From assembly GCF_055900595.2 (NCBI RefSeq), contig NZ_CM148325.1: a stretch of DNA of 64,000 nucleotides. One strand, 5' to 3'. The first letter of the stretch is position 1. Each line of letters opens with the position of its first letter. Positions 16,006 through 40,843 of this stretch are shown here, piece by piece. The notes below the pieces were generated by a model that was not told the origin of the DNA, searched no databases, and saw nothing but the letters and a program-made list of their open reading frames with translations. The translations under genes were made by a program, and so were the position numbers.

Positions 16006-16733
16006 AACATCCCTCCGTTGATGGAAATAACCTGGCGGGTGACGTAACCCGCAATATCAGACATTAAATAACTGGCAAGCCCGGCAACTTCTTCCGCCTG
16101 GCCCATGCGTTTCATGGGGATCATCGACATTGCCTCTTTCAGAGCGCTCTCTTCCATTTCGATCATCCCGGTATCAATAAGCCCCGGCGCGATGCAATTG
16201 ACGGTGATTTTGCGCTTCGCGAGTTCGATAGCCAGTGCTTTTGTTGCGCCGATAATTCCGGCTTTGGCAGCACTGTAGTTCACCTGGCCGCGATTGCCCA
16301 TTACGCCGGAAACCGAGGACAGCGTGATGATGCGTCCGCCCTGGCGTGCGCCGATCATCGGCATAATGCACGGCTGAATGACGTTGTAGAAACTGTCGAG
16401 GTTGGTGTGGATCACCGCATCCCAGTCGTCATCGCTTAAAGCCGGAAAAGCGGCATCGCGGGCGATCCCGGCGTTACTAACCACGCCGTACCAGGCACCG
16501 TGTTGCGCGATCTCGTGCTCCAGCACTTCCCGACACTGTTCGCGGTTTGCGACGTCGAAACTGAGCAAACGCCCGTTACCACCGTTGGCGACAATGGCAT
16601 TCAGCGTTTCCTGAGCGCCTGCGGCGTCACGGTGATAGTGAACGCCAATGTTAAAGCCGTCTGCCGCCAGTTGGCAGGCGATGGCGCGACCAATGCCTTT
16701 GCTGGCACCAGTAACCAGAACTGAACGACTCAT
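16002..16733 (-). CDS. apeQ: 3-oxoacyl-ACP reductase, SDR family (ApeQ-like)
   Basis: 243 aa; TGASKGIGRAIA dinucleotide-binding motif and YSAAK catalytic motif. Confidence 0.85.
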   Translation of the reverse strand: MSRSVLVTGASKGIGRAIACQLAADGFNIGVHYHRDAAGAQETLNAIVANGGNGRLLSFDVANREQCREVLEHEIAQHGAWYGVVSNAGIARDAAFPALSDDDWDAVIHTNLDSFYNVIQPCIMPMIGARQGGRIITLSSVSGVMGNRGQVNYSAAKAGIIGATKALAIELAKRKITVNCIAPGLIDTGMIEMEESALKEAMSMIPMKRMGQAEEVAGLASYLMSDIAGYVTRQVISINGGML

Positions 16734-17197
16734 CAGGACGCTCCTTGTTGAAACAGGGTGGTAAGTTCTTCCGCAGTCGGCTGGAAGGTGTTAATGCGGC
16801 CCGTTGCCTCGCCGTCGTTGATGCTGCACTCAAAACTGCCGAAGCGTTCATCTTGCATCAGCAGTTTGACGGTAATGGTCAGCGTCTGGCCTGCGGGCAG
16901 AATGCCAGCGGCGCAAAGCAATTCACGCGCGCCCAGTACCATCCCTAACTCAATACTGTTTTTGCCCTGCTGGTGGCGATGCCAGCCAGACCAGACGCCG
17001 ACGGTTTGCGCCATCAGTTCAAGGGCAAACCAGCCAGGGAGATTGCCGTCCGGGTCGAGAAACGGTGCCAGTACACCACTGGGCGAAACCGTCACGCGGC
17101 ACACGGCGCTGTCATCGCTGACGCTCACCACTTCTTCCAGCAGCAACATGGGCGCATCGTGGGGCAGATAAGCGCCGGGTGATAAATAGTGGCTCAC
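16733..17197 (-). CDS. apeP: hot-dog fold dehydratase subunit (ApeP-like)
   Basis: 154 aa; GTG start at 17197 overlapping the stop of the upstream KS gene; call rests on size and cluster position. Confidence 0.65.
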   Translation of the reverse strand: MSHYLSPGAYLPHDAPMLLLEEVVSVSDDSAVCRVTVSPSGVLAPFLDPDGNLPGWFALELMAQTVGVWSGWHRHQQGKNSIELGMVLGARELLCAAGILPAGQTLTITVKLLMQDERFGSFECSINDGEATGRINTFQPTAEELTTLFQQGAS

Positions 17198-18363
17198 GAA
17201 ACCCTCCCGAGCAGAATGCTGGCGTTATTGCCGCCAAAGGCGAAAGAATTGGACAGGATCACCGGACGTGCCAGCGGCTGTGGTTTTTCGATAATGCCGC
17301 ACGGTGGCAGCGTGGGATCGCGTGGCGACAGGCTGAAGTCCTGAGCGGGCAGCGGTAAATCACGCTCTAAGATCAACGTGCTAATTGCCGCCTCGGTAAT
17401 GCCCGCCGCGCCCAGCGTGTGTCCGGTCAAATGTTTGGTGGAGCTGCACGGTACGCGTTCGCCAAACAGGGCGTTAACCACCATTGATTCAATCTGGTCG
17501 TTGAGTTGTGTGGCGGTGCCGTGCAGGTTGATATAGCCCACCTCATCCGGCGTAAGCTGCGCATCGTTCAGCGCCTGGTTAATAGCGCGGATCGCCCCTT
17601 CGCCCTGCGGATGCGGGGCCGAAATATGATAAGCGTCGCTTGATTCACCAACGCCCAGTAACGCGATGGGCTGCGGTTCACGGGTCAGCAGCATTAGCCC
17701 CGCGCCTTCGCCAATGGTGATGCCCGCACGGTCACGACCGAACGGCTGACATAAGGTGGGCGACAGCGATTCGAGGCTGTGAAAACCGTTAATCGGCATC
17801 CGGCTCAGAGTGTCTGCGCCACCCACAATGGCGGCATCGACCAGCCCCGCTTCGATAAGCCTGCGCCCGCTGATCATCGCTCTGGCGCTGGAAGAGCAGG
17901 CGGTTGAAAGAGTATATGCCGGGCCGTCGAGCGCCAGCCAGTGGCTGAGAAAACGCGACGGATCGCCGAGTTCTTGTTGTGCATAGTGCCATGTGGTGCT
18001 TGGCTGCCCGTGGGTGCGCAGGTTAACGTGCGTGTCGCCTTCATGCAGGCCGGAGGTGCTGGTGCCAAGCACAATCGCGATGCGCTCGCGGCCATATTTT
18101 GCGATGGCGTCATCAACCTGCAGCTGGATCTGCGCCAGCGCCGCCAGCAGGATCTGATTGTTGCGCGAGCGGTGCGCAGCGAATTTTTCCGGGATAAGCG
18201 GAAGCTCGCCATCCACGCCAGCCAGGACCGCCTGCGGATGCCCCTGCAACCAGCCTGCGCGTGGGCGCATTCCGGGAGCAACACCGCGAGTCAGGTTGGC
18301 TGCGATCTCATCAAGATTATTTCCCAGGGCGTTGATCATGCCAACGGCGGAAATATAAATCAT
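17194..18363 (-). CDS. apeO: beta-ketoacyl-ACP synthase (ApeO-like)
   Basis: Active-site Cys in LSTACSSSA, His motifs LHGTATQ and GHTLGAAG. Start is either GTG 18372 (track) or ATG 18363. Confidence 0.8.
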   Translation of the reverse strand: MIYISAVGMINALGNNLDEIAANLTRGVAPGMRPRAGWLQGHPQAVLAGVDGELPLIPEKFAAHRSRNNQILLAALAQIQLQVDDAIAKYGRERIAIVLGTSTSGLHEGDTHVNLRTHGQPSTTWHYAQQELGDPSRFLSHWLALDGPAYTLSTACSSSARAMISGRRLIEAGLVDAAIVGGADTLSRMPINGFHSLESLSPTLCQPFGRDRAGITIGEGAGLMLLTREPQPIALLGVGESSDAYHISAPHPQGEGAIRAINQALNDAQLTPDEVGYINLHGTATQLNDQIESMVVNALFGERVPCSSTKHLTGHTLGAAGITEAAISTLILERDLPLPAQDFSLSPRDPTLPPCGIIEKPQPLARPVILSNSFAFGGNNASILLGRVS

Positions 18364-18364
18364 A

Positions 18365-18949
18365 TTAGTCACCTAAGTATTGAATGGTGATGTGGTATTT
18401 AAAGACATGCTGCTCAATGCTGATTGGCACGCGTTTTCCTTTGCGATTCAAATAGGTGATTTCCGTGACCAGTTTGCCGCTGGCGTTACGCAGTTCGCGT
18501 TTGTCACCGTTGTCACGAAGTGTCCATCCTGCGGGAAGTTGCGGTTGCCAGGCGCTAATCGGCCAGTGGCTGAGCATTACGTCAGCCAGCACCTGACTTG
18601 CTGGCGGCAACTGTGGGACGACGATGGATTGCTCGGCGCGTAGCCCTTGCGCATCGTAGGTCACCAGAAACAGACGAATGCCGACTGATGACAGTCCGGC
18701 AAGGGTGATTTTCTGGTCGTCGGCATTAAGCATCACCAACAGCGACTGGGTTTTGCCGTTGAAGCTGCCAGTCAACAGTTGTTGGGAATTGACGGCGGGT
18801 GAAATCCCCGGCGCAGGCAGCGTGATGCGTGTGCCAGGTTGCAGCCACGCCTGCGGGCGGCCTTCCTGTTCCGGTTGCGAGTGGCTACAGCCGGTGAGGA
18901 TAAGCGTAGCGGTCAGGGCGAGCGCCCGCCAGAAGGTGGGTTTGATCAT
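18365..18949 (-). CDS. apeN: DUF3261-like outer-membrane lipoprotein (ApeN-like)
   Basis: 194 aa; signal peptide with lipobox LTGC; ATGA overlap with the MMPL gene stop. Confidence 0.7.
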   Translation of the reverse strand: MIKPTFWRALALTATLILTGCSHSQPEQEGRPQAWLQPGTRITLPAPGISPAVNSQQLLTGSFNGKTQSLLVMLNADDQKITLAGLSSVGIRLFLVTYDAQGLRAEQSIVVPQLPPASQVLADVMLSHWPISAWQPQLPAGWTLRDNGDKRELRNASGKLVTEITYLNRKGKRVPISIEQHVFKYHITIQYLGD

Positions 18950-21261
18950 TTTTTTGTTCTCTTTTTATCGGGCATAGCCAGCGGCGAAAGCAGGAAGGCG
19001 GTGAAAATACCGCTCACCAGCACAATGCCAAAACTGCTGATGGCCTGAGTGGCGCTGAATACCAGCATTCCCAGCGTCAGCAAGGTGGTGAGCATTGCCA
19101 GCGTGATCGCCAGTAGGGAAGTTAACGGTGTACCGCGCGGATTACTGAAAAACAGCGTGTAGTTGATGCCGATGCCAAGCACCAGCACCAGCGCCAGCAG
19201 CGAAAAGAGATTCACCGCCTGCCCGCTCATCGCCAGCACTGCCAGACCGCAGCCCAGCGAAAGCACCGAAGGCACCAGGCTGATAAGCCCTTTGCGCCAG
19301 CCAAGGCGGGCCACTGCGCCGCAGGCAATCACTGCCAGCGCCACCAGCAACAAACCGGTTAAGACGTGGCGGTAAAGTGCGAACAATTCATCAAAAGTGT
19401 TTTTGCGATCAACCCAGGCAATGCCCTGGTAATAGCTGGCTGTTTCCTGCAACAACGCGCTACTTTTAACCCCTTCAACCGGCACCAGTACGCCGCTTGC
19501 GCCGTTTTCCAGCGTCAGCCACAGCAGACGCCAGCCTTCACTGGCGGGGCTTGCCAGCCATTCATCGACCTTCACTGGCATGGCGTTGAGATCTGGTTTC
19601 ACCGCCGTCAGCCCGGCATTTTGCAGCGCTTTTGTTACCGTCGGGGCAGACGTTTTCAGCAGATGTAAATCTTCCTCCTGCCGCACCAGGGAGTTCAGCG
19701 GAATAGTGCGGTAGTTGCTGATAAGACCGTCTTTTTTCGCTTTCTCCAGCGAGGCGGTAAATGTCTCCAGCCGCCGCAATGTTTGCTGTGGCGAATCGCC
19801 GTAAACCACAAACCATTTTTGATCGACGCTTTGTCCGGTCAGGGCGGTAATGGCTTTTTCCTGCGCCAGAATATGCTGCGGCAGCGCCTGTAACTGCGAG
19901 ATATCGTCATCGACGCGCAGCATTGACATCCCCGCCAGCGAAAACAGCGCCAGCGCGACGGGCAGACCCCGCGACAGTTTTTTATTGCGCCGCCACGCCG
20001 CCAGCCAGCGCAGCATCAGCGCCATCGCCGGAACCGGACGCACCGGCAGGCCACGGCACAGCCACGGATGCCAGAACAGAACGGTCAGACAGGAGGCGCT
20101 CAACCCGACGGCGGCAAAAATCGCCATCTGGCGAATGCCGGGGAAGGGGGCGAGCATCATAATCAGATACGCCGCCACGGTGGTGAGCAGCGCCAGTAGC
20201 AAGGCATTGCGCACTTTCGCCAGGCTTTGCCACGGCGAAACGTCATTGCCGTGCACCATCCGTTCAGTGAGGTAATAGAGCGTGTAGTCAGCGGAAATGC
20301 CGATAACGCTCATGCTCATCACCAGCGTCATCAGGTGTAATTCACCGAAAATCAACAAGGTGGCGACCGTTCCCGCCAGCGCGCCAATGCCGATGGAAAT
20401 CACGCAAAGCAGCAACGGGCGTAAAGAGCGGAACACCGCCACAATCAGTAATATCACCCCCAGCAGCGTTGCCACGCCCAGGGTTGAGATATCCTGCTTC
20501 GCCTGTTGACTGGCGTAATCGCTGTAAAATACCGTGCCGCGCGAGAGCAACTGCGCCTGCGGGTAACGCGTTTTCAGATCCTTTTCCAGCGTATTCAGGG
20601 TGGTGATGAGCTGGTGGGTTTGCTGCATATCAAACGACGATCCCGCCAGTTCTCCGTGTAGCAGATACCAGTAGTTGCCCTGGGGATCCTGCGTCACCAG
20701 CCAGCCGTCCATCAGTCGTAAACGCTGACCGTTTTTCGCCATCGCCAGCTGCGAGCCGCGCATTAACATCAGCGGATCGTTTTGCAGCTCCTTGCCGCTT
20801 ACCCCGGAGAACGCAGAATAAAGCTGGGAGAGGATCCACTGCGCCTGCGCTTCACCGCCGTTTTGTAGTCGGGCGCGAGTGTCGGGGTCAATCAGGCCGT
20901 TGCGATGCTGCCAGAAAAACGCTCCCCACGCCTGCTGGCTGGCGGCATCCATTGGCCCTTTAACATCGCCGAGCGCAGCGGATTTTTGCAGCAGCGTCAG
21001 CCATTCCTGAGCGACCAGGGGATTAGCCTCTTTACCGGGGCTGACCAGCCACACCAGTTGGCGGTCCAGACGCTGCATAAAGCCGTCATTCAGCGCCGGG
21101 GGAATATCGCCCATCGCCTGTTTGGGTAACATAGCCAGCACGCTACTGTTCAGTCGTGATTGCGGCAGCAGGATCAGCAACGCCGCTGCCATGACCAGGC
21201 AGATGATCCCCCATAACAGCGCCGGGCGTTTACTGGGCGGCAAAACGTTGGCGTTCGTCAT
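18946..21261 (-). CDS. apeM: MMPL/RND-superfamily predicted exporter (ApeM-like)
   Basis: 771 aa with two clusters of TM helices separated by soluble domains. Start 21261 overlaps apeL by 32 nt; an alternative ATG at 21192 is possible. Confidence 0.75.
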   Translation of the reverse strand: MTNANVLPPSKRPALLWGIICLVMAAALLILLPQSRLNSSVLAMLPKQAMGDIPPALNDGFMQRLDRQLVWLVSPGKEANPLVAQEWLTLLQKSAALGDVKGPMDAASQQAWGAFFWQHRNGLIDPDTRARLQNGGEAQAQWILSQLYSAFSGVSGKELQNDPLMLMRGSQLAMAKNGQRLRLMDGWLVTQDPQGNYWYLLHGELAGSSFDMQQTHQLITTLNTLEKDLKTRYPQAQLLSRGTVFYSDYASQQAKQDISTLGVATLLGVILLIVAVFRSLRPLLLCVISIGIGALAGTVATLLIFGELHLMTLVMSMSVIGISADYTLYYLTERMVHGNDVSPWQSLAKVRNALLLALLTTVAAYLIMMLAPFPGIRQMAIFAAVGLSASCLTVLFWHPWLCRGLPVRPVPAMALMLRWLAAWRRNKKLSRGLPVALALFSLAGMSMLRVDDDISQLQALPQHILAQEKAITALTGQSVDQKWFVVYGDSPQQTLRRLETFTASLEKAKKDGLISNYRTIPLNSLVRQEEDLHLLKTSAPTVTKALQNAGLTAVKPDLNAMPVKVDEWLASPASEGWRLLWLTLENGASGVLVPVEGVKSSALLQETASYYQGIAWVDRKNTFDELFALYRHVLTGLLLVALAVIACGAVARLGWRKGLISLVPSVLSLGCGLAVLAMSGQAVNLFSLLALVLVLGIGINYTLFFSNPRGTPLTSLLAITLAMLTTLLTLGMLVFSATQAISSFGIVLVSGIFTAFLLSPLAMPDKKRTKK

Positions 21262-21835
21262 CGGTCAGTTGCGCTGGCGTCAGTTGATGTTGGGTAAGAG
21301 CGATATCGGTGCGATCGCCCTGTTTATCATTAAGCTGAATGCTCTCCAGATAGGTTTGCCCGGCGAGATCGATGGTATTGAAAATTTTATCCAGCGGCGT
21401 GGTGGTCGGCGTCAGGCGCAGCGTCCAGCGGCCTTCGCCTTTGTCAGCAAATTCGACGCGGAAGTTTTGTTCCAGCACTTTGCGATCGGCCTGGAACAGC
21501 GCGCGCAGCAGGTGGTTAAACTGGAACATCTGCGGGTTATTTTCTGCCGTGATGATTTGTGGCGGCTGACCGTTGATCACCTGCACCATGCGTTTATCGT
21601 CCAGTAATAGCTGCATGGGGAACGGTGAGGTTTGATCCCACAACAGCCCCTGGTCGCGGGCGATCAACATCTGCCCCTGCGATCGCAGCGGTTGCGGCAG
21701 ATCTTTAATCGTCCGGGTTTGATCGAAATGGGCGCGGATCACCGGCTGTTCGGTAAAGCGTTGCTGAAGATCGTCCAGGGTCAGGGCGCTCACAAACGGG
21801 CTAATCAGCAGCGCCAGCAGCGGTAAAAATTTCAT
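21230..21835 (-). CDS. apeL: LolA-like outer-membrane lipoprotein carrier protein (ApeL-like)
   Basis: 201 aa; cleavable signal peptide (MKFLPLLALLISPFVSA); LolA-like size. Confidence 0.7.
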   Translation of the reverse strand: MKFLPLLALLISPFVSALTLDDLQQRFTEQPVIRAHFDQTRTIKDLPQPLRSQGQMLIARDQGLLWDQTSPFPMQLLLDDKRMVQVINGQPPQIITAENNPQMFQFNHLLRALFQADRKVLEQNFRVEFADKGEGRWTLRLTPTTTPLDKIFNTIDLAGQTYLESIQLNDKQGDRTDIALTQHQLTPAQLTDDERQRFAAQ

Positions 21836-22254
21836 GGTTTGACTCCCATGCGTTCAAACAGAATATCGGGGCTGACAAAGCACAGTTCGCGGCTTTGCTC
21901 GTCGACCGCGACCTGAATGGTGTATCCGGTGGTGGCGCGTTTGCCCGTTTCGGCATCGAAAATCTGATAGCCAATTCGCAGGCGGTTTTCGAACTCTTCG
22001 ATATGCGCACGCACGCGGATGCGTTGCTCAAAGGTGAGGGCGTGGCGATATTTCACCCGCGCATCGACCACTGGCCACAAATAACCCGACTCTTTCATCT
22101 GCCGATAGCCGTAATTGAACTGGTTGAGCAGCGCCTCGCGGGCCACTTCAAAGTAGCGAAAATAGTTACCGTGCCAGGCCACGCCCATCATATCGACGTC
22201 GTGAAATGGAATGATCAGCTCGACTTCAGCGGTAAATCGGGGATCGTTAAGCAC
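21832..22254 (-). CDS. apeK: 4HBT/YbgC-type hot-dog thioesterase (ApeK-like)
   Basis: 140 aa; HDVDMMGVAWHGNYFRYFE thioesterase motif; GTG start. Confidence 0.75.
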   Translation of the reverse strand: MLNDPRFTAEVELIIPFHDVDMMGVAWHGNYFRYFEVAREALLNQFNYGYRQMKESGYLWPVVDARVKYRHALTFEQRIRVRAHIEEFENRLRIGYQIFDAETGKRATTGYTIQVAVDEQSRELCFVSPDILFERMGVKP

Positions 22255-22257
22255 CCT

Positions 22258-23934
22258 TTACTCCTTGTCCTGGACTTCCGGCAGTTGCCAGAAATCGAAA
22301 AAATTAAACCAGTCGAGGGGCGACTGGAGCGCGTGATGTTCCAGACGCGCGGCGTAATGATCGATAGCGTTTTGCAGCGCCTGCTGGCGTTCGCCACGCG
22401 GCAACAGCAGCGGGTCGGCAAAGGTTTCGCAGTTAATATGCAGCTTGCCGTGCTGGCGCAGGGCGAAAATCAGATTCACCGGGCAGCGCAAAATAGACGC
22501 GAGAATAAACGGCCCCTGTGGGAAGGGCGCAGGCTGGCCCATAAACGAACTCCAGCAGACGCGCCAGTCGCCGCCGCGTTGCGGGTTGATGGCGATGCGG
22601 TCACCAACAATCGCCACCCATTCGCCGTTATCCAGCTTCTCTTTTAGCAGGATGGCGGTGTCCGGGCCGATATCCGTCACCGGCATCAGGTTAATGCCTG
22701 CCTGAGGAGCCATCTCCTGCATTATCTGTTTAAAGCGTTGGGCGTTTTCGCTAAACACCAGCGCGTTAATGGTTTTGTAGCCCTGAATTTTTGCCAGCGC
22801 CCGGCACACTTCCACATCGCCAAGATGCGAGGCCAGCAGCAATTTGCCGCGCGGATCGCTGACGTTAAGTGCCGCTTCTGCGCCTGGTGCAAACAGCACA
22901 TCACGCCCGAGTTGCAGCTCGCCGCGCCAACTGGCGATTTTGTCGAGCATGGCGTTGCCGAAACGTAGAAAGTGCTGATAGCTGTTGAGTTTTGCTGCCT
23001 GTGGTTGATGCTGGCGCACACGGGCGAGCCAGTCTTGCGACGCTTTGCGCGCCCGGCTGGCGGTGAGCCAGTAGACGCCCACCACCGGATAAAGCAGCGC
23101 GGTAAACGCCGTTCTTCCCAGCAGGCGCCAGACCAGCAGCATCAGGCGCATTCCCCATAATCCTTTCACTTCGCTCTGCCGCGCCCAGTGGCTGGAAGAG
23201 TGGCGCATCAGCAGCGAAGGAATACGCGGCAACATGCCGAAAAACAGGCGCGTGTGCATGAGCGAGATGCGGACGTTATCTTTCAGGGCATCAAAGTGCG
23301 AAAGCCCGTCCAGCGGATAGGTGACGCGGGTCGGCACGAAATAGCTGGTGTTTCCCTGCCAGTAGAGGCGCACCATCACTTCGGTGTCGAAATCCATCCG
23401 CTTGCCGATGGTGGCGTGTTTTGCCAGTTGCAGCGTTGGCGCAACCGGATAAACGCGAAAGCCGCACATGCTGTCTTTCAGTTGCAGGGAGAGCGTTTCG
23501 ACCCATACCCAGATGTGGGTGACCCAGCGCCCGTACAGCCGTGAGCGGGGGATGGAGTCATCGTAAATTGGCTGGCCGGAGATCAGTGCCGCAGGGTGTT
23601 GTTCAGCGAGTGCCAGCAGTTTGGGGATATCTTCAATCGCGTGCTGACCGTCGGCATCTACCTGTACCGCATGGCTGAACCCCGCGTCTGCCGCTGCCTG
23701 TAAGCCGCGCATTACCGCCGCGCCTTTGCCTGCGTTTTCTGCCAGGCGAATTAATGTCACGCCAGGCTGTTCGGCAACCAGATTATCCAGTTGCTGTTGC
23801 GTGGCGGCATCGCTGCCGTCATCCACCACAATACAGGGCAGATTAAATGGCTTAAGACGCGCCAGCACGCCCGGCATCATTGCGCCGTGGTTGTAGCAGG
23901 GGATCAACACGCAGGGAGAAAAGTTTACCGACAT
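22258..23934 (-). CDS. apeJ: family-2 glycosyltransferase fused to a C-terminal acyltransferase-like domain (ApeJ-like)
   Basis: 558 aa; N-terminal GT-A fold signature (CYNHG...VVDDGSDA), longer C-terminal domain. Confidence 0.7.
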   Translation of the reverse strand: MSVNFSPCVLIPCYNHGAMMPGVLARLKPFNLPCIVVDDGSDAATQQQLDNLVAEQPGVTLIRLAENAGKGAAVMRGLQAAADAGFSHAVQVDADGQHAIEDIPKLLALAEQHPAALISGQPIYDDSIPRSRLYGRWVTHIWVWVETLSLQLKDSMCGFRVYPVAPTLQLAKHATIGKRMDFDTEVMVRLYWQGNTSYFVPTRVTYPLDGLSHFDALKDNVRISLMHTRLFFGMLPRIPSLLMRHSSSHWARQSEVKGLWGMRLMLLVWRLLGRTAFTALLYPVVGVYWLTASRARKASQDWLARVRQHQPQAAKLNSYQHFLRFGNAMLDKIASWRGELQLGRDVLFAPGAEAALNVSDPRGKLLLASHLGDVEVCRALAKIQGYKTINALVFSENAQRFKQIMQEMAPQAGINLMPVTDIGPDTAILLKEKLDNGEWVAIVGDRIAINPQRGGDWRVCWSSFMGQPAPFPQGPFILASILRCPVNLIFALRQHGKLHINCETFADPLLLPRGERQQALQNAIDHYAARLEHHALQSPLDWFNFFDFWQLPEVQDKE

Positions 23935-24278
23935 AGGCGGATCTTCCCGCTACTGGCGGTGTGGCGGGCGTCACCGTCGTGACGCTGATAACTAAAGCTC
24001 AGAATCTGGCGTTCTTCCTGCCAGCTAAGCGTGAGTGTGACGCGGTTATCCGGCAGCAATGGAGCCTGGAATTTGATGTTCTGAATGGAGTGAAAACGCC
24101 AACCGGGCGCGAGCAGGGCAAGCGCGTAACTCATCGCCCAGTCGATTTGCGCCACGCCAGGGAGTAATGGTTGTACGGCAAAATGACCGCGAAACCAGAA
24201 CAGATCTGCCCTGAGATGCAAAACAATCTCAAGGTGATTCACTTGTGCCTGATGGCGCTCGATTTCATGGGGCTTCAT
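23925..24278 (-). CDS. apeI: FabZ-like 3-hydroxyacyl-ACP dehydratase (ApeI-like)
   Basis: Hot-dog dehydratase motif FRGHFAVQPLLPGV. ATG at 24278 preferred over the track GTG at 24308, which would overlap apeH by 44 nt. Confidence 0.75.
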   Translation of the reverse strand: MKPHEIERHQAQVNHLEIVLHLRADLFWFRGHFAVQPLLPGVAQIDWAMSYALALLAPGWRFHSIQNIKFQAPLLPDNRVTLTLSWQEERQILSFSYQRHDGDARHTASSGKIRLCR

Positions 24279-25626
24279 GAAATAACTCCTGTAATTGCGC
24301 ATAGACACGCTTGTTCATACTGTTTACTGGCATTTCATCAATAACGCGCCAGTAACGCGGAATAGCAACTGGCTCCAGCGTCGGGCGCAGTAATCGCCGC
24401 CAGGCCATTTCCTGGCTGTGCCCGCCGCCGTTTTGCCATTGCAGGCGAGCTTCGTCATCCAGCACCAGCAAAACGCCAATACTCTGACGTCCGCCGCGCG
24501 TAACGGGAACTGCCGCCGCCTCGCGAATACCGTCCAGCGCCAGCAGACGTTGTTCTACTTCCTGGAGTGAAATACGTTTTTCTTCAATCTTAACGATGCG
24601 CCCACGACGCCCCATCAGATGGAACTGACCGTCCTGGCTAAACTGCAAGAGATCATCGAGTAACAGGCCGTTATCTTCCGCTATCAGCGGTGAAAAGAGG
24701 CGAAATGCTTCACCTTCGGCCTGGAACTGCACACCTGGGAAGGGTAGCCAGCGGCGTTGCTCTTGTTCGCGGTAACGCCAGGCGATGACGCCGGTTTCCG
24801 TGCTGCCGTAGATTTCATCAGGCCAGACGCGCAGCCAGCTCGCGGTATATTGTACGTCCTGCCACGGCAGCTCACCGCCAGCAGAGAGAAGCACCTGAAC
24901 GGGCGGCGGAGAAAGCTGGGTATCCAGCCGTTTCAAAAATGCCGGGCTGCTGATGAAGATATAGCGATGCTGGTGACTCAATGCGGCAAACTGTTCGACA
25001 TACCAGAGCATGGCGGCGTGCAGCGGTAATCCCAGCGCCATTGGCAGGAAAACGCGAAAAGTCAGGCCGTACAAATGCTGCGGCAATACGGAACCGACGA
25101 CACGACATCCGGCAAGACGTGCGCCTAATCGTTCAGCCAGCAGTTCTGCTTCACGGTCCAGCAAATGAACAGGTTTAATTACCCGCTTTGGCTGCCCCGT
25201 AGAACCGGAGGTAAACAGCTCGATATAAGCGTCTGGCGCTATAGCGGCAAAGGTGAATGATTGTGTCGCGACTTGTGGGGAGCTTGCTACCAACAGCAAT
25301 GAACCTTGCCAGTTAAGTTCGCTGTCGCTAAGCACACCATCGAACAGTTCACGTTGCTCGTTAAGCTGGATGACGCGGTTATGCCCCGGAAGCACCGGTG
25401 TTTTTCCGGCGTGTAGCGTGGCGAGCAGGGCAACGATAAACAGATAGCAGTCCTCAAAGCACAGCGCCCAGCGTTCACCTGGTTGTTGCTGTAAACGGCA
25501 GATAAGTTGCGAGACATCGTGACGCAAATCGCCCAGCGTCCAGGTGCTTTCGTCCAGCCACGCAATGGGCGTGTCATCAGGGCGTGGCGCAGTCAGCCAG
25601 CGTGCAAGCGGTAAGGTCTGCTTCAT
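24265..25626 (-). CDS. apeH: AMP-dependent acyl/aryl ligase (adenylate-forming; ApeH-like)
   Basis: Adenylation P-loop FTSGSTGQPKRV. ATG at 25624..25626 forms an ATGA overlap with the apeG stop; the track start 25665 is an extension. Confidence 0.8.
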   Translation of the reverse strand: MKQTLPLARWLTAPRPDDTPIAWLDESTWTLGDLRHDVSQLICRLQQQPGERWALCFEDCYLFIVALLATLHAGKTPVLPGHNRVIQLNEQRELFDGVLSDSELNWQGSLLLVASSPQVATQSFTFAAIAPDAYIELFTSGSTGQPKRVIKPVHLLDREAELLAERLGARLAGCRVVGSVLPQHLYGLTFRVFLPMALGLPLHAAMLWYVEQFAALSHQHRYIFISSPAFLKRLDTQLSPPPVQVLLSAGGELPWQDVQYTASWLRVWPDEIYGSTETGVIAWRYREQEQRRWLPFPGVQFQAEGEAFRLFSPLIAEDNGLLLDDLLQFSQDGQFHLMGRRGRIVKIEEKRISLQEVEQRLLALDGIREAAAVPVTRGGRQSIGVLLVLDDEARLQWQNGGGHSQEMAWRRLLRPTLEPVAIPRYWRVIDEMPVNSMNKRVYAQLQELFHEAP

Positions 25627-26204
25627 GAGCGATCTCTTTTCATCACCTGACGGCGCACCAGCCATTCACCAGCCATTAACGTCCCCATCAACAAATAAGC
25701 AATCATGCCGTTCCAGGCAGTCCATAACGACATATCGCCATGCAGCGCGGTAAAGAGGGCAATTCCGCCGTTGATGATGAAAAAGCCGCACCAGATTTGC
25801 GTGACGTGGCGGGTATAGCGCACGCCCTTTTCCGGGAGGTCTGGCTCCTGCAAACGCGCCAGCCGCTCAACAATTGGCATTGCCGACCACAGCGAACCGC
25901 CAAAAACCGCCAGCATTACCGCGTTAACCACTACCGGGTAAAACAGCAGTAGCTGGTGCGTTTTCAACAGAAAGCTGGCGACACACAAGGCGATACCCAC
26001 GACAGCGACGATTTGTGTGACGGCTTGTAGCGGCTCGGCCTGGCAACGAGTCTGGCGCAGGCGCAATAAAAGCAGCAGCGCCATCAGCGGCAACAGCCAG
26101 TGCAGGCCGTTATGTGCCAAACCAAGCCAAATCACAAACGGCCAGGCGAGCAGTAATAATCCGGTCAGCAGTTTAATAATCGGTAGCGAGCGAATGCCCG
26201 ACAT
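25623..26204 (-). CDS. apeG: polytopic inner-membrane protein of unknown function (ApeG-like)
   Basis: 193 aa, about five hydrophobic helices; ATG 26202..26204. Confidence 0.65.
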   Translation of the reverse strand: MSGIRSLPIIKLLTGLLLLAWPFVIWLGLAHNGLHWLLPLMALLLLLRLRQTRCQAEPLQAVTQIVAVVGIALCVASFLLKTHQLLLFYPVVVNAVMLAVFGGSLWSAMPIVERLARLQEPDLPEKGVRYTRHVTQIWCGFFIINGGIALFTALHGDMSLWTAWNGMIAYLLMGTLMAGEWLVRRQVMKRDRS

Positions 26205-26208
26205 CAGA

Positions 26209-26460
26209 TCAGGCTTCTTGTAGCAGGCGTTCTACGGCCTCTACGACATCCTGGACTGTACGCACTGCTTTAAACTCTTCCGGCTTGATTTTCTTACCGG
26301 TTTTCTTTTGCAGATGCACAATCATGTCAACGGCGTCGATGCTGTCCAGTTCCAGATCTTCGTACAGGCGCGCTTCAGGTTTGATGTCCTGCGGATCGAT
26401 TTCAAACAGCTTAACCAGCAGAGCTGAGACTTCCTGATAGACGGTTTGTTGTTCTGTCAT
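26209..26460 (-). CDS. apeF: acyl carrier protein (ApeF-like)
   Basis: Pantetheine attachment motif LELDSIDAVDM. ATG at 26460 (MTEQQ...) or the track GTG at 26475. Confidence 0.8.
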   Translation of the reverse strand: MTEQQTVYQEVSALLVKLFEIDPQDIKPEARLYEDLELDSIDAVDMIVHLQKKTGKKIKPEEFKAVRTVQDVVEAVERLLQEA

Positions 26461-26471
26461 GATGGCTTTCC

Positions 26472-26729
26472 TCACGCACGTTGTGCAGCAATAAAAGAGG
26501 CCAGAGTGGCGACAGAGAAAAAGTGCTGACGCATCTCTTCACTTTCCGCAGAAAGTACAACGCCATATTCATTTTTTACTGCCAGCCCCAGTTCCAGGGC
26601 ATCGATGGAATCCAGCCCTAAACCGTCGCCGAACAGCGGCGCATCGGTCTCGATATCATCAGGAGTCAACTCGTCCAGATTGAGGGTGCTGATGATGAGG
26701 TTTTTAATTTCCAGATAAAGCGCTTGCAT
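26472..26729 (-). CDS. apeE: acyl carrier protein (ApeE-like)
   Basis: 85 aa; LGLDSIDALEL motif; ATG 26727..26729. Confidence 0.8.
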   Translation of the reverse strand: MQALYLEIKNLIISTLNLDELTPDDIETDAPLFGDGLGLDSIDALELGLAVKNEYGVVLSAESEEMRQHFFSVATLASFIAAQRA

Positions 26730-27525
26730 TATTTATTCCTGAGAGAGGTAAACAACCTTGTTGTAATTGAAGCAAAAGATGCCGGTTTAACTGCCTTGCT
26801 GCCAGCGCCGGTTCTTGTGAAGTTGCAACGTAAAATTTATTGATTTCAACCCGATCATGGACTTCAACCGTAAAAAACGGCCTGGCAGGTGGAACGTCAT
26901 ACCATTTACTTTGTTTATCCAGCAGATGCTCGCTACAGCCGATCGTCACGATGCGTAAATCGCTGGCACAGCGCACGGCAATATTCGCCGCCCCGCGCTG
27001 CAGCGTCATTTTTTCACCGGGCTTCGTTCGCGTGCCTTCGGGGAAAATCAAGATAGTGTCGCCCTGTGCCAGTCGCTGTTGGCAGCGGGGTAACAGGGTT
27101 TCAGCTTCGCTGTTGATTAAATAATCTGCCGCCCGCACAACGCCGCCAAGAAAAGGATTTTTTAACAGCGCGCTTTTCACCAGGCAGTCAGTTTCTGGCA
27201 TGACTGACGCCAGCAGTACGTAATCGATAAGCGTGGGATGATTAGCTACGACGAGGCAACCGCGTTCCTGACGTAAAATTTCAGCGCCATCAATACGATA
27301 ATCCAGCACGCCAAGCCCTTTCGCGACAGTTAAAAACAGGCGAAAACTGGCGGCAATGCTGCGACGCGCCAAACGACGGCGGCGGGAAGTATCCCACACC
27401 AAAACTAACAATATGTTAAACCACACGACAGAAAGCAGCAGGCCGCCGAGACCAAACAGGGCAAAACACAACCCGGTCATAACCAGTCGCCATGTCCATT
27501 CCAGGCGTGACATCAGCTTACTCAT
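26704..27525 (-). CDS. apeD: PlsC-like lysophospholipid acyltransferase (ApeD-like)
   Basis: 273 aa; N-terminal TM anchor; HX4D acyltransferase motif NHPTLID; ATGA overlap with the apeC stop. Confidence 0.75.
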   Translation of the reverse strand: MSKLMSRLEWTWRLVMTGLCFALFGLGGLLLSVVWFNILLVLVWDTSRRRRLARRSIAASFRLFLTVAKGLGVLDYRIDGAEILRQERGCLVVANHPTLIDYVLLASVMPETDCLVKSALLKNPFLGGVVRAADYLINSEAETLLPRCQQRLAQGDTILIFPEGTRTKPGEKMTLQRGAANIAVRCASDLRIVTIGCSEHLLDKQSKWYDVPPARPFFTVEVHDRVEINKFYVATSQEPALAARQLNRHLLLQLQQGCLPLSGINNASALSGN

Positions 27526-28244
27526 CTACGGCTCCAGCGCCACTGTACGCGCTCACCAGGAAGTGAAAAAGCATCTGAATTTTGTAAATAGTGCTGTAAA
27601 AACAACATGCTTTGCGGCAGTGTTGTTTCATTGCCCGCAATGGCTGGCTGTGTTTCACATTGCCACTCATCGCCAGCTTCAATCACCAGCGCAACAGCAT
27701 ATGGCCAGGTCGGCATTTCTGCTGGGAGCTGCGGATGATAGAACTCAGGTAGAAAGCCATCAAAATCGACCATCAACACGCGCTGGTATCCCGCTTGTAA
27801 CAGGCTAAGCACTTCACACAAACCTTGCTGGAAAGTGTCGCGACCAGCCGAAAGCGATGAGGAAACGATCGGTTGTTTGGCCGCAATGGTCAGGTTACCC
27901 ACGGAAGAGTTGTGTACGGAGAGCGCGAAGTCCGTCGGAGAGAGCGCCTGTTCGGTTGCCAGTGCATGAACAATGCGGTAATTGCGCTCCAGCTCGCCAT
28001 GACGACTGGTATACAAAACGGCGTCTGGCTGATGGTGGCGTAGCATTGCCAGACCGCACTCCACGGCCAGTTTGCTGCCAGAACTGAGACGGCGGGCGGT
28101 CATCATTGGCAGTTCACTTAATTTTGCCAACGGTGCGGCAGGGTCAACCGCCCACGGCTGGCGCGACCATGCTTGCCATTGCTGGGCTTCGCTAAGTCCA
28201 GGCGCCAGTGCCTTCCAGTCGGTAATATTTAATGTAAATTTCAT
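27522..28244 (-). CDS. apeC: truncated KS-like protein lacking the active-site Cys motif; chain-length-factor-like partner (ApeC-like)
   Basis: About 240 aa with no TACSS-type motif. ATG at 28244 (MKFTLNI...) preferred over the track TTG at 28268. Confidence 0.6.
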   Translation of the reverse strand: MKFTLNITDWKALAPGLSEAQQWQAWSRQPWAVDPAAPLAKLSELPMMTARRLSSGSKLAVECGLAMLRHHQPDAVLYTSRHGELERNYRIVHALATEQALSPTDFALSVHNSSVGNLTIAAKQPIVSSSLSAGRDTFQQGLCEVLSLLQAGYQRVLMVDFDGFLPEFYHPQLPAEMPTWPYAVALVIEAGDEWQCETQPAIAGNETTLPQSMLFLQHYLQNSDAFSLPGERVQWRWSRR

Positions 28245-28284
28245 CAACGCGCGCCCGCGGTAAACCAAAATTATTAAGTGACGA

Positions 28285-29343
28285 TTATTTCTTTTGGCAT
28301 ATCAATAATGTATGCCCAACGCCTAAATTATCGTGGCGCTCTGCTACCTGAAATCCTGCTTTATTCAGATAGTCGTAAAATTTCTCTGCGCTATAGAAAC
28401 GGCTGTTACCGTTTGCCATGCAGGTAAAATAAAGTGAGGACGCGTTCAGGCTAAATGATGCTGCTTCAAACCGCTGCGCATCCCAGAACAACTCCATGAT
28501 GCAAACTTTTGCGCCAGGCTTCATTACGCTGGCGATTTTGCTGAGTATGCTAATTATTTGTTCGGGTGAAAAACAGTCTAAAAATTGGCTCATCCACCAG
28601 ATATCAGCCTCGCCCGGTAATGGGGCATCGCTTAGCATATCCACCGCATGGAAATCTATGCGATCAGAAAAACCTGCATTCGCGATATTTTCTTTCGCTA
28701 GTACGATTTGTTGTGGCAGATCTAATAACGTCACGGCGATGTTTTCATTGTATTTGCAGCAACGCAAAGCCCACTTACCCGTATTGCCGCCTACATCGTA
28801 CAATGTTGTGGGGTTGTTGGCGAATACATAAGGCAGTGCGGCGTTAAATGCGCCATCTGAATAGTAATGATCAAACGCAAACCAGCTTTCACGAGCGGCA
28901 TCTGGTAATTGTGAAAGTGCGGGATATATCGTCGACCAGTCGCCAAATACTTTTAACCCGGACGGTTTTCCTTCATTGAGTGAATCGGCGAGGAAGAAGA
29001 GCCCCTGATAGCAGACATCCTGGGTGAAATCCATATTCACGCGAGTCATAGTGTCATGCAGGAGGTAATGACCGATTTTCGCCAGGTAATACATTCCCTC
29101 TTTACAGGTAATAATTCGCCCGCTTAAGCCCATATCTAACAGAACGCTGGCCGCATATTCGTTGATATGGCTATGTTCGGTGATATCAGCCAGCGTTGCG
29201 CCATGTTTGCCTTGCCGATCCAGATATGAAAGTACACCCGCATTACGTAGGCAGAGAGCTGTTTGAAAAAGCATGGGGGCAAAGGCAATGCGTTGAGCTT
29301 CGGTAATCGCATCCAGTGCGCTAAGAGAATCCTGTTCGTACAT
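28285..29343 (-). CDS. apeB: SAM-dependent methyltransferase, probably O-methyltransferase (ApeB-like)
   Basis: SAM-binding motif LYDVGGNTG; ATG at 29343 (MYEQ...) or the track GTG at 29352. Confidence 0.75.
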   Translation of the reverse strand: MYEQDSLSALDAITEAQRIAFAPMLFQTALCLRNAGVLSYLDRQGKHGATLADITEHSHINEYAASVLLDMGLSGRIITCKEGMYYLAKIGHYLLHDTMTRVNMDFTQDVCYQGLFFLADSLNEGKPSGLKVFGDWSTIYPALSQLPDAARESWFAFDHYYSDGAFNAALPYVFANNPTTLYDVGGNTGKWALRCCKYNENIAVTLLDLPQQIVLAKENIANAGFSDRIDFHAVDMLSDAPLPGEADIWWMSQFLDCFSPEQIISILSKIASVMKPGAKVCIMELFWDAQRFEAASFSLNASSLYFTCMANGNSRFYSAEKFYDYLNKAGFQVAERHDNLGVGHTLLICQKK

Positions 29344-29411
29344 GTTGGGCACAACCTGTTAAGAGGGAATTAAATTATTATCGGACCGAAGCGGCCCGAC
29401 TTTAGGGGAAA

Positions 29412-29801
29412 TTACAAATCTGCGCCAGCCGACAAATTCAGTTGAATATCTTTGTCGAGATTGCGGACCCAGCGATTATAGTTTTTATGAATTTGTCCGC
29501 CTGATGCTTGCAGGTTCTGACTATTTTCATAATTGATATCGTAGCTGGATGCCGTGTAGTTAATGCGAATTTCGGCTGAATGATCGCGTGACTGTTGACG
29601 TGCTTTAATTACGCCTTGTCCGGCTTCGGACATAATCCATTTGCGTTCAACGCCAGCTTTCAGAATCGCTTTTTTCACTTGTTCCTGGGTATGACCAGCG
29701 CTGACGGTTGAGTGAACCTGATCAATTGGCGCAGTACGCGCGCAACCCGCTAAAGCACCCACAACAGCAATAGCCGCAAACCATTTCATGTAATGTCTCA
29801 T
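29412..29801 (-). CDS. small lipoprotein of unknown function at the island edge
   Basis: 129 aa; signal peptide and lipobox (AVVGALAGC); start ATG at 29801 or 29789; candidate hairpin terminator just downstream. Confidence 0.55.
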   Translation of the reverse strand: MRHYMKWFAAIAVVGALAGCARTAPIDQVHSTVSAGHTQEQVKKAILKAGVERKWIMSEAGQGVIKARQQSRDHSAEIRINYTASSYDINYENSQNLQASGGQIHKNYNRWVRNLDKDIQLNLSAGADL

Positions 29802-30130
29802 TAGAATCCCATTAAAGTATTGTTTTTACGAGTAAAGCAAGATTTAACTGTAATTGCTGGCATCACTATTCTTTATTTAGCGAAAAAATTACTTGTGAGA
29901 TAAGTCAGTAAGTGCACATCAGAGTAAAAATTTCTGAAATGACTAAATTACTGCCAGCGGGGACCAACTATAAGTGAGTGAGAAAAATGAGGCAATAAAA
30001 ATAACAGATTGTTATCAGTGCATTCTTTGAGAGGGATTTAATCGCTATTCGGCGTTTATATATATTTGACTTAAGGAATGGTTTTTATAAATTAATTGTC
30101 TGAATAATGTTTCTTCATTTCCTCAAATCA
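29802..30130 (-). promoter_or_regulatory. AT-rich intergenic region, candidate promoter/regulatory region for the island
   Basis: About 330 bp of markedly AT-rich, stop-dense sequence upstream of the minus-strand island genes; no specific sites identified. Confidence 0.3.
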
Positions 30131-30160
30131 AATGGCCACTGTTAGATAAACGGTGGCCAT
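30131..30160 (-). terminator. perfect 9-bp inverted repeat 3' of yhhT; possible terminator or binding site
   Basis: AATGGCCAC-N12-GTGGCCATT, 20 bp past the yhhT stop; only a weak U-run follows on the minus strand. Confidence 0.3.
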
Positions 30161-30180
30161 TGCCTGCTCAGGAGGTGCTA

Positions 30181-31230
30181 TTAACCCGGTAACCGACTTT
30201 TCGGTCTGCCCGGCCCCAGTAAGATCGCCAGTTTGCTACCGCCTTTGGTGGTTTCCATCCAGATTTTACACACGCTGGTTAATGGTACCGAAAGTAGCAT
30301 CCCTACCGGGCCGAGCAGCCATCCCCAAATTAACAATGAAAGAAATACCACCATGGTGGACATCCCCAGGCGATGGCCCATCATCCGTGGTTCTAAAATA
30401 TTGCCGATGACCATATGGACCACTAAAAACAATGCGCCGACCAGAATACATTCGTAAACGCCATTAAACAGCAGCACCTGAATCATTGGCGGTACGGCGG
30501 AAATTACCGCGCCGATATTGGGCACGTAGTTGAGCAAAAACGCCAGTACTGCCCACATCAGCGCAAACTGTACGCCCATTAGCGCCAGCCCCAGCCAGAC
30601 GATTACGCCTGTCCATAAACTTAGCAGTGTCTTCAATGCAAGATAGTGTGAAACACCTTTTAAGGCGCGGTGTAGTCCGGCGATGTGAATCTGTGGATTA
30701 TTCAACGCAAAACGCATTTTGTAGGGGACGTGGCGTACTTCAAACAGCATGAAAACTACGGTCATCACCAGCAAAAGCACGCTCGCCATTGCCCCGGAAA
30801 GCCCGGTCATTAGCGCCGTGGTGAAGGTAACCACTTTTTCCGAGTCCATCCGCTGCAGCATTCGCTCCGGCGACATATGCAAATTAAGAAAAGGCAACAT
30901 CTCCTGCAATTTAAAAAGTTTGCGCGTCAGCTCCTTATTAAACTTCGGCAGCATAGAGATGAATTCGTTAAACGATGCCGCCAGTACGCCGACCAGCGCA
31001 GTAAGCGCAATCAGCATCACCACGACCACAATTGTAATGGCAACGGGACGCTGAACACCGCGACGAATAAACCAGGTGACCAGTGGGTTGAGGACGATGG
31101 CAAAAAACAGCGCCAGTAACAGCTGCACAATGATATCTGCCGCTGCGTGAATGCCCGCGAGGATCACTACCAGCGAGGCCAGCTTGAGCAGAATGTGCAT
31201 GCCCGTTTTATCGGGTTGAGGGGTTTCCAT
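30181..31230 (-). CDS. yhhT: AI-2E family transporter YhhT
   Basis: In-frame ATG at 31228..31230 gives 349 aa (METPQPDKTG...); polytopic membrane protein. The track ORF is a 27-codon extension. Confidence 0.85.
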   Translation of the reverse strand: METPQPDKTGMHILLKLASLVVILAGIHAAADIIVQLLLALFFAIVLNPLVTWFIRRGVQRPVAITIVVVVMLIALTALVGVLAASFNEFISMLPKFNKELTRKLFKLQEMLPFLNLHMSPERMLQRMDSEKVVTFTTALMTGLSGAMASVLLLVMTVVFMLFEVRHVPYKMRFALNNPQIHIAGLHRALKGVSHYLALKTLLSLWTGVIVWLGLALMGVQFALMWAVLAFLLNYVPNIGAVISAVPPMIQVLLFNGVYECILVGALFLVVHMVIGNILEPRMMGHRLGMSTMVVFLSLLIWGWLLGPVGMLLSVPLTSVCKIWMETTKGGSKLAILLGPGRPKSRLPG

Positions 31231-39304: not shown

Positions 39305-40843
39305 ATGGCGAAAGAAAAAAAACGTGGCTTTTTTTCCTGGCTGGGCTTTGGTCAAAAAGAGCAGACCCCGGAAAAAGAGACAGAAGTCCAGAACGAACAA
39401 CCAGTTGTAGAAGAAATCGTTCAGGCGCAAGAGCCTGCGAAGGCTTCTGAACAAGCCGTTGAAGAGCAGCCGCAGGCGCATACTGAAGCCGAGGCGGAAA
39501 CTTTTGCTGCCGACGTTGTGGAAGTTACTGAACAGGTTGCTGAAAGTGAAAAAGCGCAGTCTGAAGTTGTTGCTGAACCGGAAGTTATTACTGAGCCGGA
39601 AACGATAGTTGAAGAAACGCCAGCGTCAGTCATTGAACCTGAAGTTACGCCAGAGCCTGTGGCTATCGAGCGTGAAGAGCTGCCGTTGCCGGAAGACGTC
39701 AAAGCCGAAGAGGTTTCGCCAGAAGAGTGGCAGGCCGAAGCGGAAACCGTAGAGATTGTCGAAGCGGCGGAAGAAGAAGCGGCTAAAGACGAAATCACCG
39801 ACGAAGAGCTGGAAGCACAGGCGCTGGCTGCCGAAGCGGCAGAAGAGGCGGTGATGGTGGTTCCTCCGGCAGAAGAAGAGCAGCCGGTGGAAGAAATCGC
39901 TCAGGAGCAGGAAAAACCGACCAAAGAAGGTTTCTTCGCGCGCCTGAAACGCAGTCTGTTAAAAACCAAAGAAAACCTCGGTTCCGGATTTATCAGCCTG
40001 TTCCGCGGTAAAAAAATCGACGATGATCTGTTTGAAGAATTGGAAGAGCAATTGCTCATCGCCGATGTGGGCGTGGAAACCACGCGTAAAATTATCACCA
40101 ATCTGACAGAAGGTGCGACCCGCAAGCAGCTTCGTGATGCCGAGGCGCTCTATGGCCTACTGAAAGAAGAGATGGGTGAGATTCTGGCGAAAGTCGATGA
40201 ACCGCTGAACGTTGAAGGTAAAACGCCGTTCGTGATCCTGATGGTGGGCGTCAACGGTGTGGGTAAAACCACGACGATCGGTAAGCTGGCGCGTCAGTTT
40301 GAGCAGCAGGGTAAATCAGTGATGCTGGCGGCGGGCGATACTTTCCGTGCAGCAGCGGTTGAACAGCTTCAGGTCTGGGGTCAGCGTAATAATATTCCGG
40401 TGATTGCCCAGCATACCGGTGCGGATTCCGCTTCTGTTATCTTCGACGCCATTCAGGCCGCTAAAGCGCGTAACATCGACGTTTTGATTGCCGATACCGC
40501 CGGACGCCTGCAGAACAAATCGCACTTGATGGAAGAGTTGAAGAAAATCGTCCGCGTGATGAAGAAACTCGACGTTGAAGCTCCGCATGAAGTTATGCTG
40601 ACTATCGACGCCAGTACCGGGCAGAATGCAGTAAGCCAGGCCAAACTGTTCCACGAAGCCGTTGGCTTAACCGGCATCACGCTAACGAAACTGGACGGCA
40701 CGGCGAAAGGCGGGGTAATTTTCTCGGTGGCTGACCAGTTTGGTATCCCTATCCGCTACATTGGTGTCGGCGAACGTATTGAGGATTTGCGTCCGTTTAA
40801 AGCGGACGACTTTATAGAGGCACTTTTTGCCCGAGAGGATTAA
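39305..40843 (+). CDS. ftsY: signal recognition particle receptor FtsY
   Basis: MAKEKKRGFFSWLGFG N-terminus, long acidic E/A-rich domain, GTPase motifs GVNGVGKTT and DTAGR. Confidence 0.95.
   Translation: MAKEKKRGFFSWLGFGQKEQTPEKETEVQNEQPVVEEIVQAQEPAKASEQAVEEQPQAHTEAEAETFAADVVEVTEQVAESEKAQSEVVAEPEVITEPETIVEETPASVIEPEVTPEPVAIEREELPLPEDVKAEEVSPEEWQAEAETVEIVEAAEEEAAKDEITDEELEAQALAAEAAEEAVMVVPPAEEEQPVEEIAQEQEKPTKEGFFARLKRSLLKTKENLGSGFISLFRGKKIDDDLFEELEEQLLIADVGVETTRKIITNLTEGATRKQLRDAEALYGLLKEEMGEILAKVDEPLNVEGKTPFVILMVGVNGVGKTTTIGKLARQFEQQGKSVMLAAGDTFRAAAVEQLQVWGQRNNIPVIAQHTGADSASVIFDAIQAAKARNIDVLIADTAGRLQNKSHLMEELKKIVRVMKKLDVEAPHEVMLTIDASTGQNAVSQAKLFHEAVGLTGITLTKLDGTAKGGVIFSVADQFGIPIRYIGVGERIEDLRPFKADDFIEALFARED

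Follow-up and report, generated by a model that had tools for sequence, protein, structure and literature searches.

The window, by which we mean the whole 64,000-nucleotide stretch of DNA that was analysed, contains ftsY, the gene for the SRP receptor. In the list of open reading frames (ORFs), its coding sequence occupies 39305..40843 on the plus strand, begins with ATG, and specifies 512 amino acids followed by a stop codon. It is the first gene of ftsY-ftsE-ftsX, with ftsE starting at 40846 and ftsX at approximately 41507, and rsmD lies divergently on the opposite strand; ftsY has these same neighbors in K-12, CFT073, and SMS-3-5. The gene is 100% identical to an annotated one in strain Z0117EC0005, and no difference is detectable between its product and the clade I/ST485 protein encoded there, WP_103253583.1. 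The allele is thus an already known, ordinary one of its lineage, catalogued in RefSeq. An antisense ORF within the gene (39421..39798; 125 amino acids, rich in Ser and Ala) was rejected as a mirror artefact of the GAA/GCN-rich coding strand.

The protein opens with an acidic A domain (residues 1–207; 39305..39925, plus strand), delimited by its composition and by the lack of a Pfam match before residue 225. Asp and Glu make up 30% of this domain, which carries a net charge of −50 over the 206 residues preceding KEGFF; the A domain of K-12 carries −46 over 191 residues, and its acidic share is likewise 30%. At the N terminus lies a fully conserved basic lipid-binding region, MAKEKKRGFFSWLGFGQK (39305..39358, plus strand). 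Residues 1–20 do not vary among the nine aligned Escherichia sequences, and a wider alignment adding Citrobacter and Salmonella showed differences at residues 4 and 17. An amphipathic membrane-targeting sequence (MTS), FFARLKRSLLKTK, marks the A/N junction (39932..39970, plus strand) and is invariant in all aligned sequences. The NG domain that follows (39977..40828, plus strand) consists in Pfam terms of SRP54_N (PF02881; residues 225–290, E = 4.5e-15) and the SRP54 GTPase (PF00448; residues 308–508, E = 4.7e-80, covering profile positions 1–195 of 196), both far above the curated cut-offs.

The GTPase motifs G1 (GVNGVGKTT), G3 (DTAGR), and G4 (TKLD) are present in the translation and do not vary from K-12, and the entire NG domain differs from that of K-12 by two residues, S to T at 272 and A to T at 307. 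The GTPase domain is therefore intact, as the earlier note had held. The window protein shows every feature of the FtsY family that sequence can reveal: N and G domains, motifs, the enterobacterial A-domain architecture, and genomic position. It matches K-12 FtsY in its place beside rsmD at the head of ftsY-ftsE-ftsX, in its identical N-terminal lipid-binding region and A/N MTS, and at 97% of aligned positions overall. The near-identity of the NG domains predicts that the window protein would engage the Ffh/4.5S RNA complex in a GTP-dependent manner and dock at SecYEG.

Where the two proteins differ is in length. In K-12 strain ER2796, ftsY is annotated as 1494 nt encoding 497 amino acids (WP_001040654.1), a protein that we take to be UniProt P10121; the window protein is 15 residues longer. 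The lengths given in the earlier note, 512 amino acids here and about 497 for K-12, were thus both right, and pairwise alignment with K-12 confirmed that the difference is real. Protein and DNA alignments with K-12, CFT073, and PSJ-07 resolved the 15 extra residues into three in-frame indels, all of which fall in the A domain, where the extra length had been suspected (approximately 39400..39900). An assembly artefact is excluded, since an independent complete genome carries the 1539-nt gene at 100% identity and eight genomes match its most variable part at 100%. The length difference is a deterministic observation, for which chance is not an issue.

The first indel is a 12-nt segment, GTTGCTGAACCG, placed by codon alignment at 39569..39580 (plus strand), although the position of the gap depends on the alignment within about 39566–39583. 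It encodes four amino acids that K-12, CFT073, and 98.6% of E. coli lack. In the window it is flanked on both sides by GAAGTT; in E. whittamii the flanks read GAAGC...GAAGC, with the two copies 12 nt apart, and a deletion between them yields the K-12 junction, GAAGCGGAAGTC, exactly. The second indel, which the common E. coli allele lacks, is a 30-nt segment encoding the ten residues TPASVIEPEV (39617..39646, plus strand, by alignment). This segment opens with the heptanucleotide ACGCCAG (39617–39623), and a second copy abuts its end (39647–39653). Deleting one ACGCCAG together with the intervening DNA gives GAAGAAACGCCAGAGCC, a single A/G difference away from K-12, GAAGAAACGCCGGAGCC. The third is one CAG codon, Gln172 (39818..39820, plus strand, from a listing of the junctions), which is found in the window, CFT073, and all outgroups and is missing from the K-12-type 497-residue alleles. 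Strain PSJ-07 carries a separate 120-nt A-domain deletion, bracketed by GAAGAG and leaving an FtsY of 458 amino acids, that is independent of the K-12-type deletions. A deletion bounded by short direct repeats bears the classical mark of replication slippage or microhomology-mediated deletion.

We sampled ftsY lengths at even spacing from 5,425 matches (n = 40) and found 1497 nt in 28, 1494 nt in ten, 1539 nt in one, and 1377 nt in one. The commonest E. coli FtsY has 498 amino acids, and K-12 itself is a minority variant shorter by one codon.

Both larger indels sit in a hypervariable patch of the A domain that was delimited by identity comparison (residues ~85–119; 39556..39662, plus strand), SEVVAEPEVITEPETIVEETPASVIEPEVTPEP. 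Here 14 of 65 alignable nucleotides differ from K-12 (78.5% identity), as against 15 of 511 in the rest of the A domain (97%; Fisher p = 3e-7). The patch was the lowest-identity segment in nearly every comparison of long with short alleles and between species, and in the profile of the window against K-12 no bin of the syntenic region scored lower than 39501–40000 (86.4%). Substitutions cluster at residues 86–101, which read SEVVAEPEVITEPETI in the window and PEA----EVVAQPEPV in K-12. The patch is built of degenerate, hexapeptide-like units of E, P, V, T, and A. A degenerate 18-nt tandem repeat (hexapeptide EV[VI][AT]EP) runs for 2.2 copies at 39563..39601 (plus strand; TRF period 18, 83–85% matches, score 57); further direct repeats are 57–79% alike, and copies spaced by 30 nt (family D9) are 76% identical over 21 nt. 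The patch does not behave as a contingency-type tandem-repeat polymorphism, in which near-perfect units vary in copy number, since it holds only 2.2 copies at 83–85% match, indels of 12 and 30 nt that are not multiples of 18 nt, and dense substitutions.

Rates of change set the patch apart as well. Between long and short alleles its dS is 0.58 (seven synonymous differences), a between-species level, as compared with 0.07–0.13 in the adjacent A-domain segments. Constraint on the central and 3′ A domain is relaxed: dN/dS is 0.26–0.70 there versus 0.02–0.03 in NG (the NG values being against other E. coli), and it nowhere exceeds 1.

The window is about 95–96% identical to K-12 throughout the syntenic region. 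We rejected the idea that ftsY entered an otherwise K-12-like genome as a lone recombinant island, as the divergence extends over the whole window and flank matches track the carriers of the patch. A gene at least 99% identical to the window ftsY occurs in only 18 of 5,425 genomes. All eight genomes that match the patch of the window at 100% do so over 8 kb of downstream flank as well; among these, the GEMS isolates E200086, E400634, E500002, and E600003 are typed "Cryptic I" and 100117 "Cryptic", with ST485 and OND:H45 (PMC13064198). The next-best relatives, 2013C-4282 and EC42405 (flank identity 98.4–98.7%), are clade I strains, clade I being a sister lineage to E. coli sensu stricto at the subspecies level, with >95% ANI (PMC10100065). 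On the evidence of the 64-kb window, we assign its source to Escherichia cryptic clade I, in an ST485-like lineage. This placement accounts for the roughly 5% synonymous divergence from K-12 seen throughout ftsY. The long patch is present in each of the 18 genomes that match best in the flank, which points to vertical inheritance inside the clade I lineage.

The long patch is nonetheless shared more widely: it is present in 49 of 5,426 complete genomes (~0.9%), of which 18 have a clade-I-like local background and about 31 an E. coli background resembling SMS-3-5. A K-12-like patch (≥95% identity) is found in 5,351 of 5,425 genomes, and 19 more have one at 80–90%. The FtsY of SMS-3-5 (WP_001040624.1), like that of some 30 comparable E. 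coli sensu stricto genomes, has 512 amino acids and both segments, and the SMS-3-5 patch is 97% identical to that of the window; its NG domain, however, is only 96.4% identical, and nine substitutions separate the A domains. Given the 99.7% CFT073-like NG domain of SMS-3-5 and flanks that in the approximately 31 carriers outside clade I reach no more than 96.7% identity to the window, the long patch stands on at least two genomic backgrounds. The earlier note had thought of a strain polymorphism; what we find is a lineage allele of cryptic clade I.

To polarize the length difference, we scanned for outgroups with the A domain as query, taking one genome per species; the scan returned no representative of E. 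fergusonii, E. marmotae, E. ruysiae, or E. coli. FtsY has 512 amino acids in E. whittamii (clade II) and in SCPM-O-B-8794, a divergent genome labelled E. coli, and 509 in Escherichia sp. E1V33; all three share the A-domain layout of the window and carry both segments at matching positions. In E. albertii (504 amino acids) and Escherichia sp. MOD1-EC7003 (486 amino acids), the 12-nt segment is present and 24 of the 30 nt of the second are missing. The short state nests inside long-bearing lineages, and on parsimony the common E. coli allele would therefore be the deleted form, which makes contraction in the majority of E. coli, rather than expansion in the window lineage, the probable direction of change. 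This polarity comes from Escherichia lineages alone, because the FtsY proteins of Salmonella and Citrobacter are short and can barely be aligned in the patch region. A search of E. coli with the E. whittamii patch as query found no undeleted precursor of the K-12-type haplotype. Six records labelled E. coli encode an E. albertii-like FtsY of 504 amino acids; we rejected interspecies transfer of the A domain as their origin because MSB1_4I, the one fetched, is also 98–100% identical to E. albertii over 3.1 kb of flanks and is probably a mislabelled genome.

In sequence, as opposed to length, the long patch is no close match to the outgroups sampled (76–89% identity), and on the strength of these values we rejected E. 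whittamii, E1V33, SCPM-O-B-8794, E. albertii, and MOD1-EC7003 as recent donors of the patch. The long patch is only 77–79% identical to those of E. whittamii and SCPM-O-B-8794, to which the short K-12 patch is 88–89% identical, and the E1V33 patch falls in the same 77–79% range against the window. Where the window reads TEPETIVEE, E. whittamii and E1V33 have AQPEPVVEE and SCPM-O-B-8794 has AEPEPVVEE; the E. whittamii motif is also that of K-12, and the TEPE of the window recurs in MOD1-EC7003. Taken with the dS of 0.58, these distances mean that simple vertical descent plus two deletions does not explain the substitutions in the patch. The long patch thus appears ancestral-like in its length state while its sequence lies on a long branch, which might reflect a long-standing polymorphism, gene conversion of a short tract by a lineage outside the sample, or local acceleration combined with uncertain alignment of degenerate repeats.

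An NG+1 construct without the A domain reportedly supports growth (Eitan and Bibi, J Bacteriol 2004). The larger indels map to about K-12 residues 86–100, in the middle of the disordered region. NMR has shown Ile38–Ala140 of the K-12 protein to be a highly dynamic, intrinsically disordered stretch that makes no contact with lipid (PMC5094494); lipid binding involves Gly8–Lys18 and the C-terminal MTS (PMC5094494; summarized in PMC9099147). The central A domain contacts SecYEG through non-specific electrostatics and retains its disorder in doing so (PMC5094494; summarized in PMC9099147). The A domain provides most of the affinity for SecYEG, which for K-12 FtsY is 0.18 μM (PMC5094494), and works as a flexible tether (PMC5094494; PMC9099147). 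Against this background, 14–15 additional residues would most likely amount to a slightly longer tether with a near-neutral effect.

We consider it probable that the window ftsY is a normal, functional clade I allele whose 512-residue product is the undeleted, genus-typical form of a disordered linker, and that the allele of K-12 and of ~98.6% of E. coli is derived. An ancestral-like long A domain would have been kept in the clade I lineage. The majority E. coli lineage would have lost 12 nt and 30 nt, both in frame and between short direct repeats, through replication slippage or microhomology-mediated deletion, with the loss of one more codon, CAG, in K-12-type alleles. The action of FtsY should be unchanged, the affected part being disordered, non-lipid-binding, and non-specific in its contact with SecYEG, and the long form shifting net charge by only −4.

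The opposite course, in which the window strain recently duplicated repeat units of its A domain from a K-12-like ancestral length, might be suggested by the degenerate tandem and direct repeats at both indel sites. Those copies are only 57–85% alike, however, which leaves no room for a recent duplication, and the long state occurs in at least three Escherichia lineages other than E. coli and in the 49 complete genomes on their two backgrounds; the long alleles moreover differ from one another by 1–4 substitutions in the patch and by 2–4% elsewhere in the gene, an indication of age. We regard such an expansion as very improbable. Of the earlier suggestion of repeat expansion or contraction as a strain polymorphism, its natural origin and its setting in a low-complexity A domain with degenerate repeats (the 18-nt unit and paired ACGCCAG) hold, whereas polarity, repeat-unit nature, and strain level do not: the non-coli Escherichia point to contraction in majority E. 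coli, and the indels look like microhomology deletions within a substitution-dense stretch of about 100 nt rather than simple gain or loss of repeat units.

A stronger competitor, if still an unlikely one, treats the patch as a product of allele replacement rather than of recent deletion in situ: a short gene-conversion tract, with either the long or the short form imported from an unsampled Escherichia, or a polymorphism older than the split between E. coli and clade I. The excess of substitutions and of dS over adjacent segments fits this account, as does the sharing of AQPEPVVEE and of TEPE across species lines, and only lineage sorting or transfer would place a patch 97–99% identical on both clade I and E. 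coli sensu stricto backgrounds. Yet no donor turned up, and outgroup patches reach 84–89% identity at best; the patch is the fastest-evolving segment between species generally, so that relaxed constraint and misaligned repeats may inflate its divergence; the counts are small (the seven synonymous differences); and in the window lineage the patch has been inherited together with its flanks. Least probable of all in our estimation is that long and short alleles are functionally distinct and both maintained by selection, with tether length and charge tuning FtsY-SecYEG docking or co-translational membrane association. The contribution of the A domain to SecYEG affinity gives the idea some footing, and the long allele adds 15 residues and four net negative charges, but the binding is non-specific and leaves disorder intact (PMC5094494), the acidic share stays at 30%, dN/dS nowhere rises above 1, and natural alleles span 458–512 amino acids in viable isolates. 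There is, finally, a slim chance that the patch is an ancient polymorphism common to several Escherichia lineages, in which two deeply diverged families of patch haplotypes (a TEPE-type long form and an AQPEP-type form) predate the split of E. coli from clade I, have been moved by short gene-conversion tracts, and may persist because the length or charge of the SRP-receptor tether matters in some niche; we entertain it because patch dS is at the between-species level and the patch is shared by two backgrounds.

On the favored reading, that of an undeleted clade I allele, the biological weight of the finding is small, and the polymorphism is a routine natural one. For annotation, an FtsY of 512 amino acids in an E. 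coli-like genome does not signal a mis-called start, a frameshift, or an assembly error, and K-12, one codon under the commonest E. coli allele, should not be taken as the ancestral reference state. The presence or absence of the 42 nt in ftsY offers a simple marker for cryptic clade I together with an SMS-3-5-like subset, about 0.9% of complete genomes. The range of natural allele lengths in viable isolates fits the biophysical view that the central A domain is a disordered tether tolerant of changes in length.

The identity of the window to K-12 is only ~95–96% over its whole length (1–64000; profiled at 7106–60712), and the stretches of it that we tested match genomes typed as Cryptic I, ST485, OND:H45 at 100%. 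Because of this combination, we place the source strain of the window, on sequence identity, in Escherichia cryptic clade I and not in E. coli sensu stricto.

Gene content differs from that of K-12 as well. The window-versus-K-12 identity profile showed that ~15.4 kb between the yhhT and acpT homologues (14795–30184) lack a K-12 counterpart. Minus-strand open reading frames (ORFs) of this segment match ketoacyl synthases, a KR/SDR, an MMPL-like exporter and a family-2 glycosyltransferase, along with an AMP-binding enzyme, an acyltransferase and an O-methyltransferase; the segment resembles the acpT-adjacent fatty-acid/aryl-polyene-type island of O157:H7 (O-island 138) and CFT073. Conversely, gaps between aligned segments (HSPs), read with the K-12 annotation, revealed no window counterpart of two regions of the K-12 comparison sequence (L030), namely rhsB/yhhH/ISEc1 (~6.7 kb) and tssD-yrhA-IS1-yrhB (~3.4 kb), whose points of absence lie at 8750–8754 and 59354–59405, respectively.

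Within ftsY, the coding region of the acidic, disordered N-terminal A domain also contains a Ser/Ala-rich antisense ORF of 125 aa (39421–39798, minus strand), whose composition suggests a mirror image of the GAA/GCN-rich sense strand, not a gene.

The A domain is subject to natural deletion. Strain PSJ-07 (NZ_AP027619.1) encodes an FtsY of 458 aa (L003, the PSJ-07 locus, 1501–2877) bearing a 120-nt in-frame deletion that has GAAGAG repeats at both ends and aligns to window positions 39722–39841. Lost through this deletion is the stretch EEWQAEAETVEIV, which takes in several positions that are invariant among aligned enterobacterial A domains (E141–E145, E147, T148 and E150); also removed is K-12 region 152–161, the site of a transient helix.

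The hypervariable patch of the A domain defines additional alleles. Six records under an E. coli label, MSB1_4I (NZ_LR898874.1), SCU-172, MS 21-1, OZ547117, OZ546925 and OZ546911, match the patch of the 504-aa E. albertii-type ftsY. Locus-level comparison covers one of the six, MSB1_4I, whose yhhM-ftsE locus (L031 1–3129), together with its flanks, shares 98–100% identity with E. albertii NBRC 107761 across 3.1 kb, but only 73–97% with K-12. Judged by these sequence matches, the six are probably E. albertii genomes mislabelled as E. coli. Another 19 genomes in our collection of complete E. coli genomes carry a patch 80–90% identical to that of K-12, and constitute a further allele class that is neither the long class, which retains both indel segments, nor the E. 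albertii type. Finally, the ftsY loci of E. albertii and Escherichia sp. MOD1-EC7003 (L006 and L008) have in common an identical 24-nt deletion with a GAATCT junction (aligned to window 39617–39640). That the same deletion and junction occur despite only 88–92% identity elsewhere in the gene points to either parallel deletion or the exchange of a short tract between lineages.
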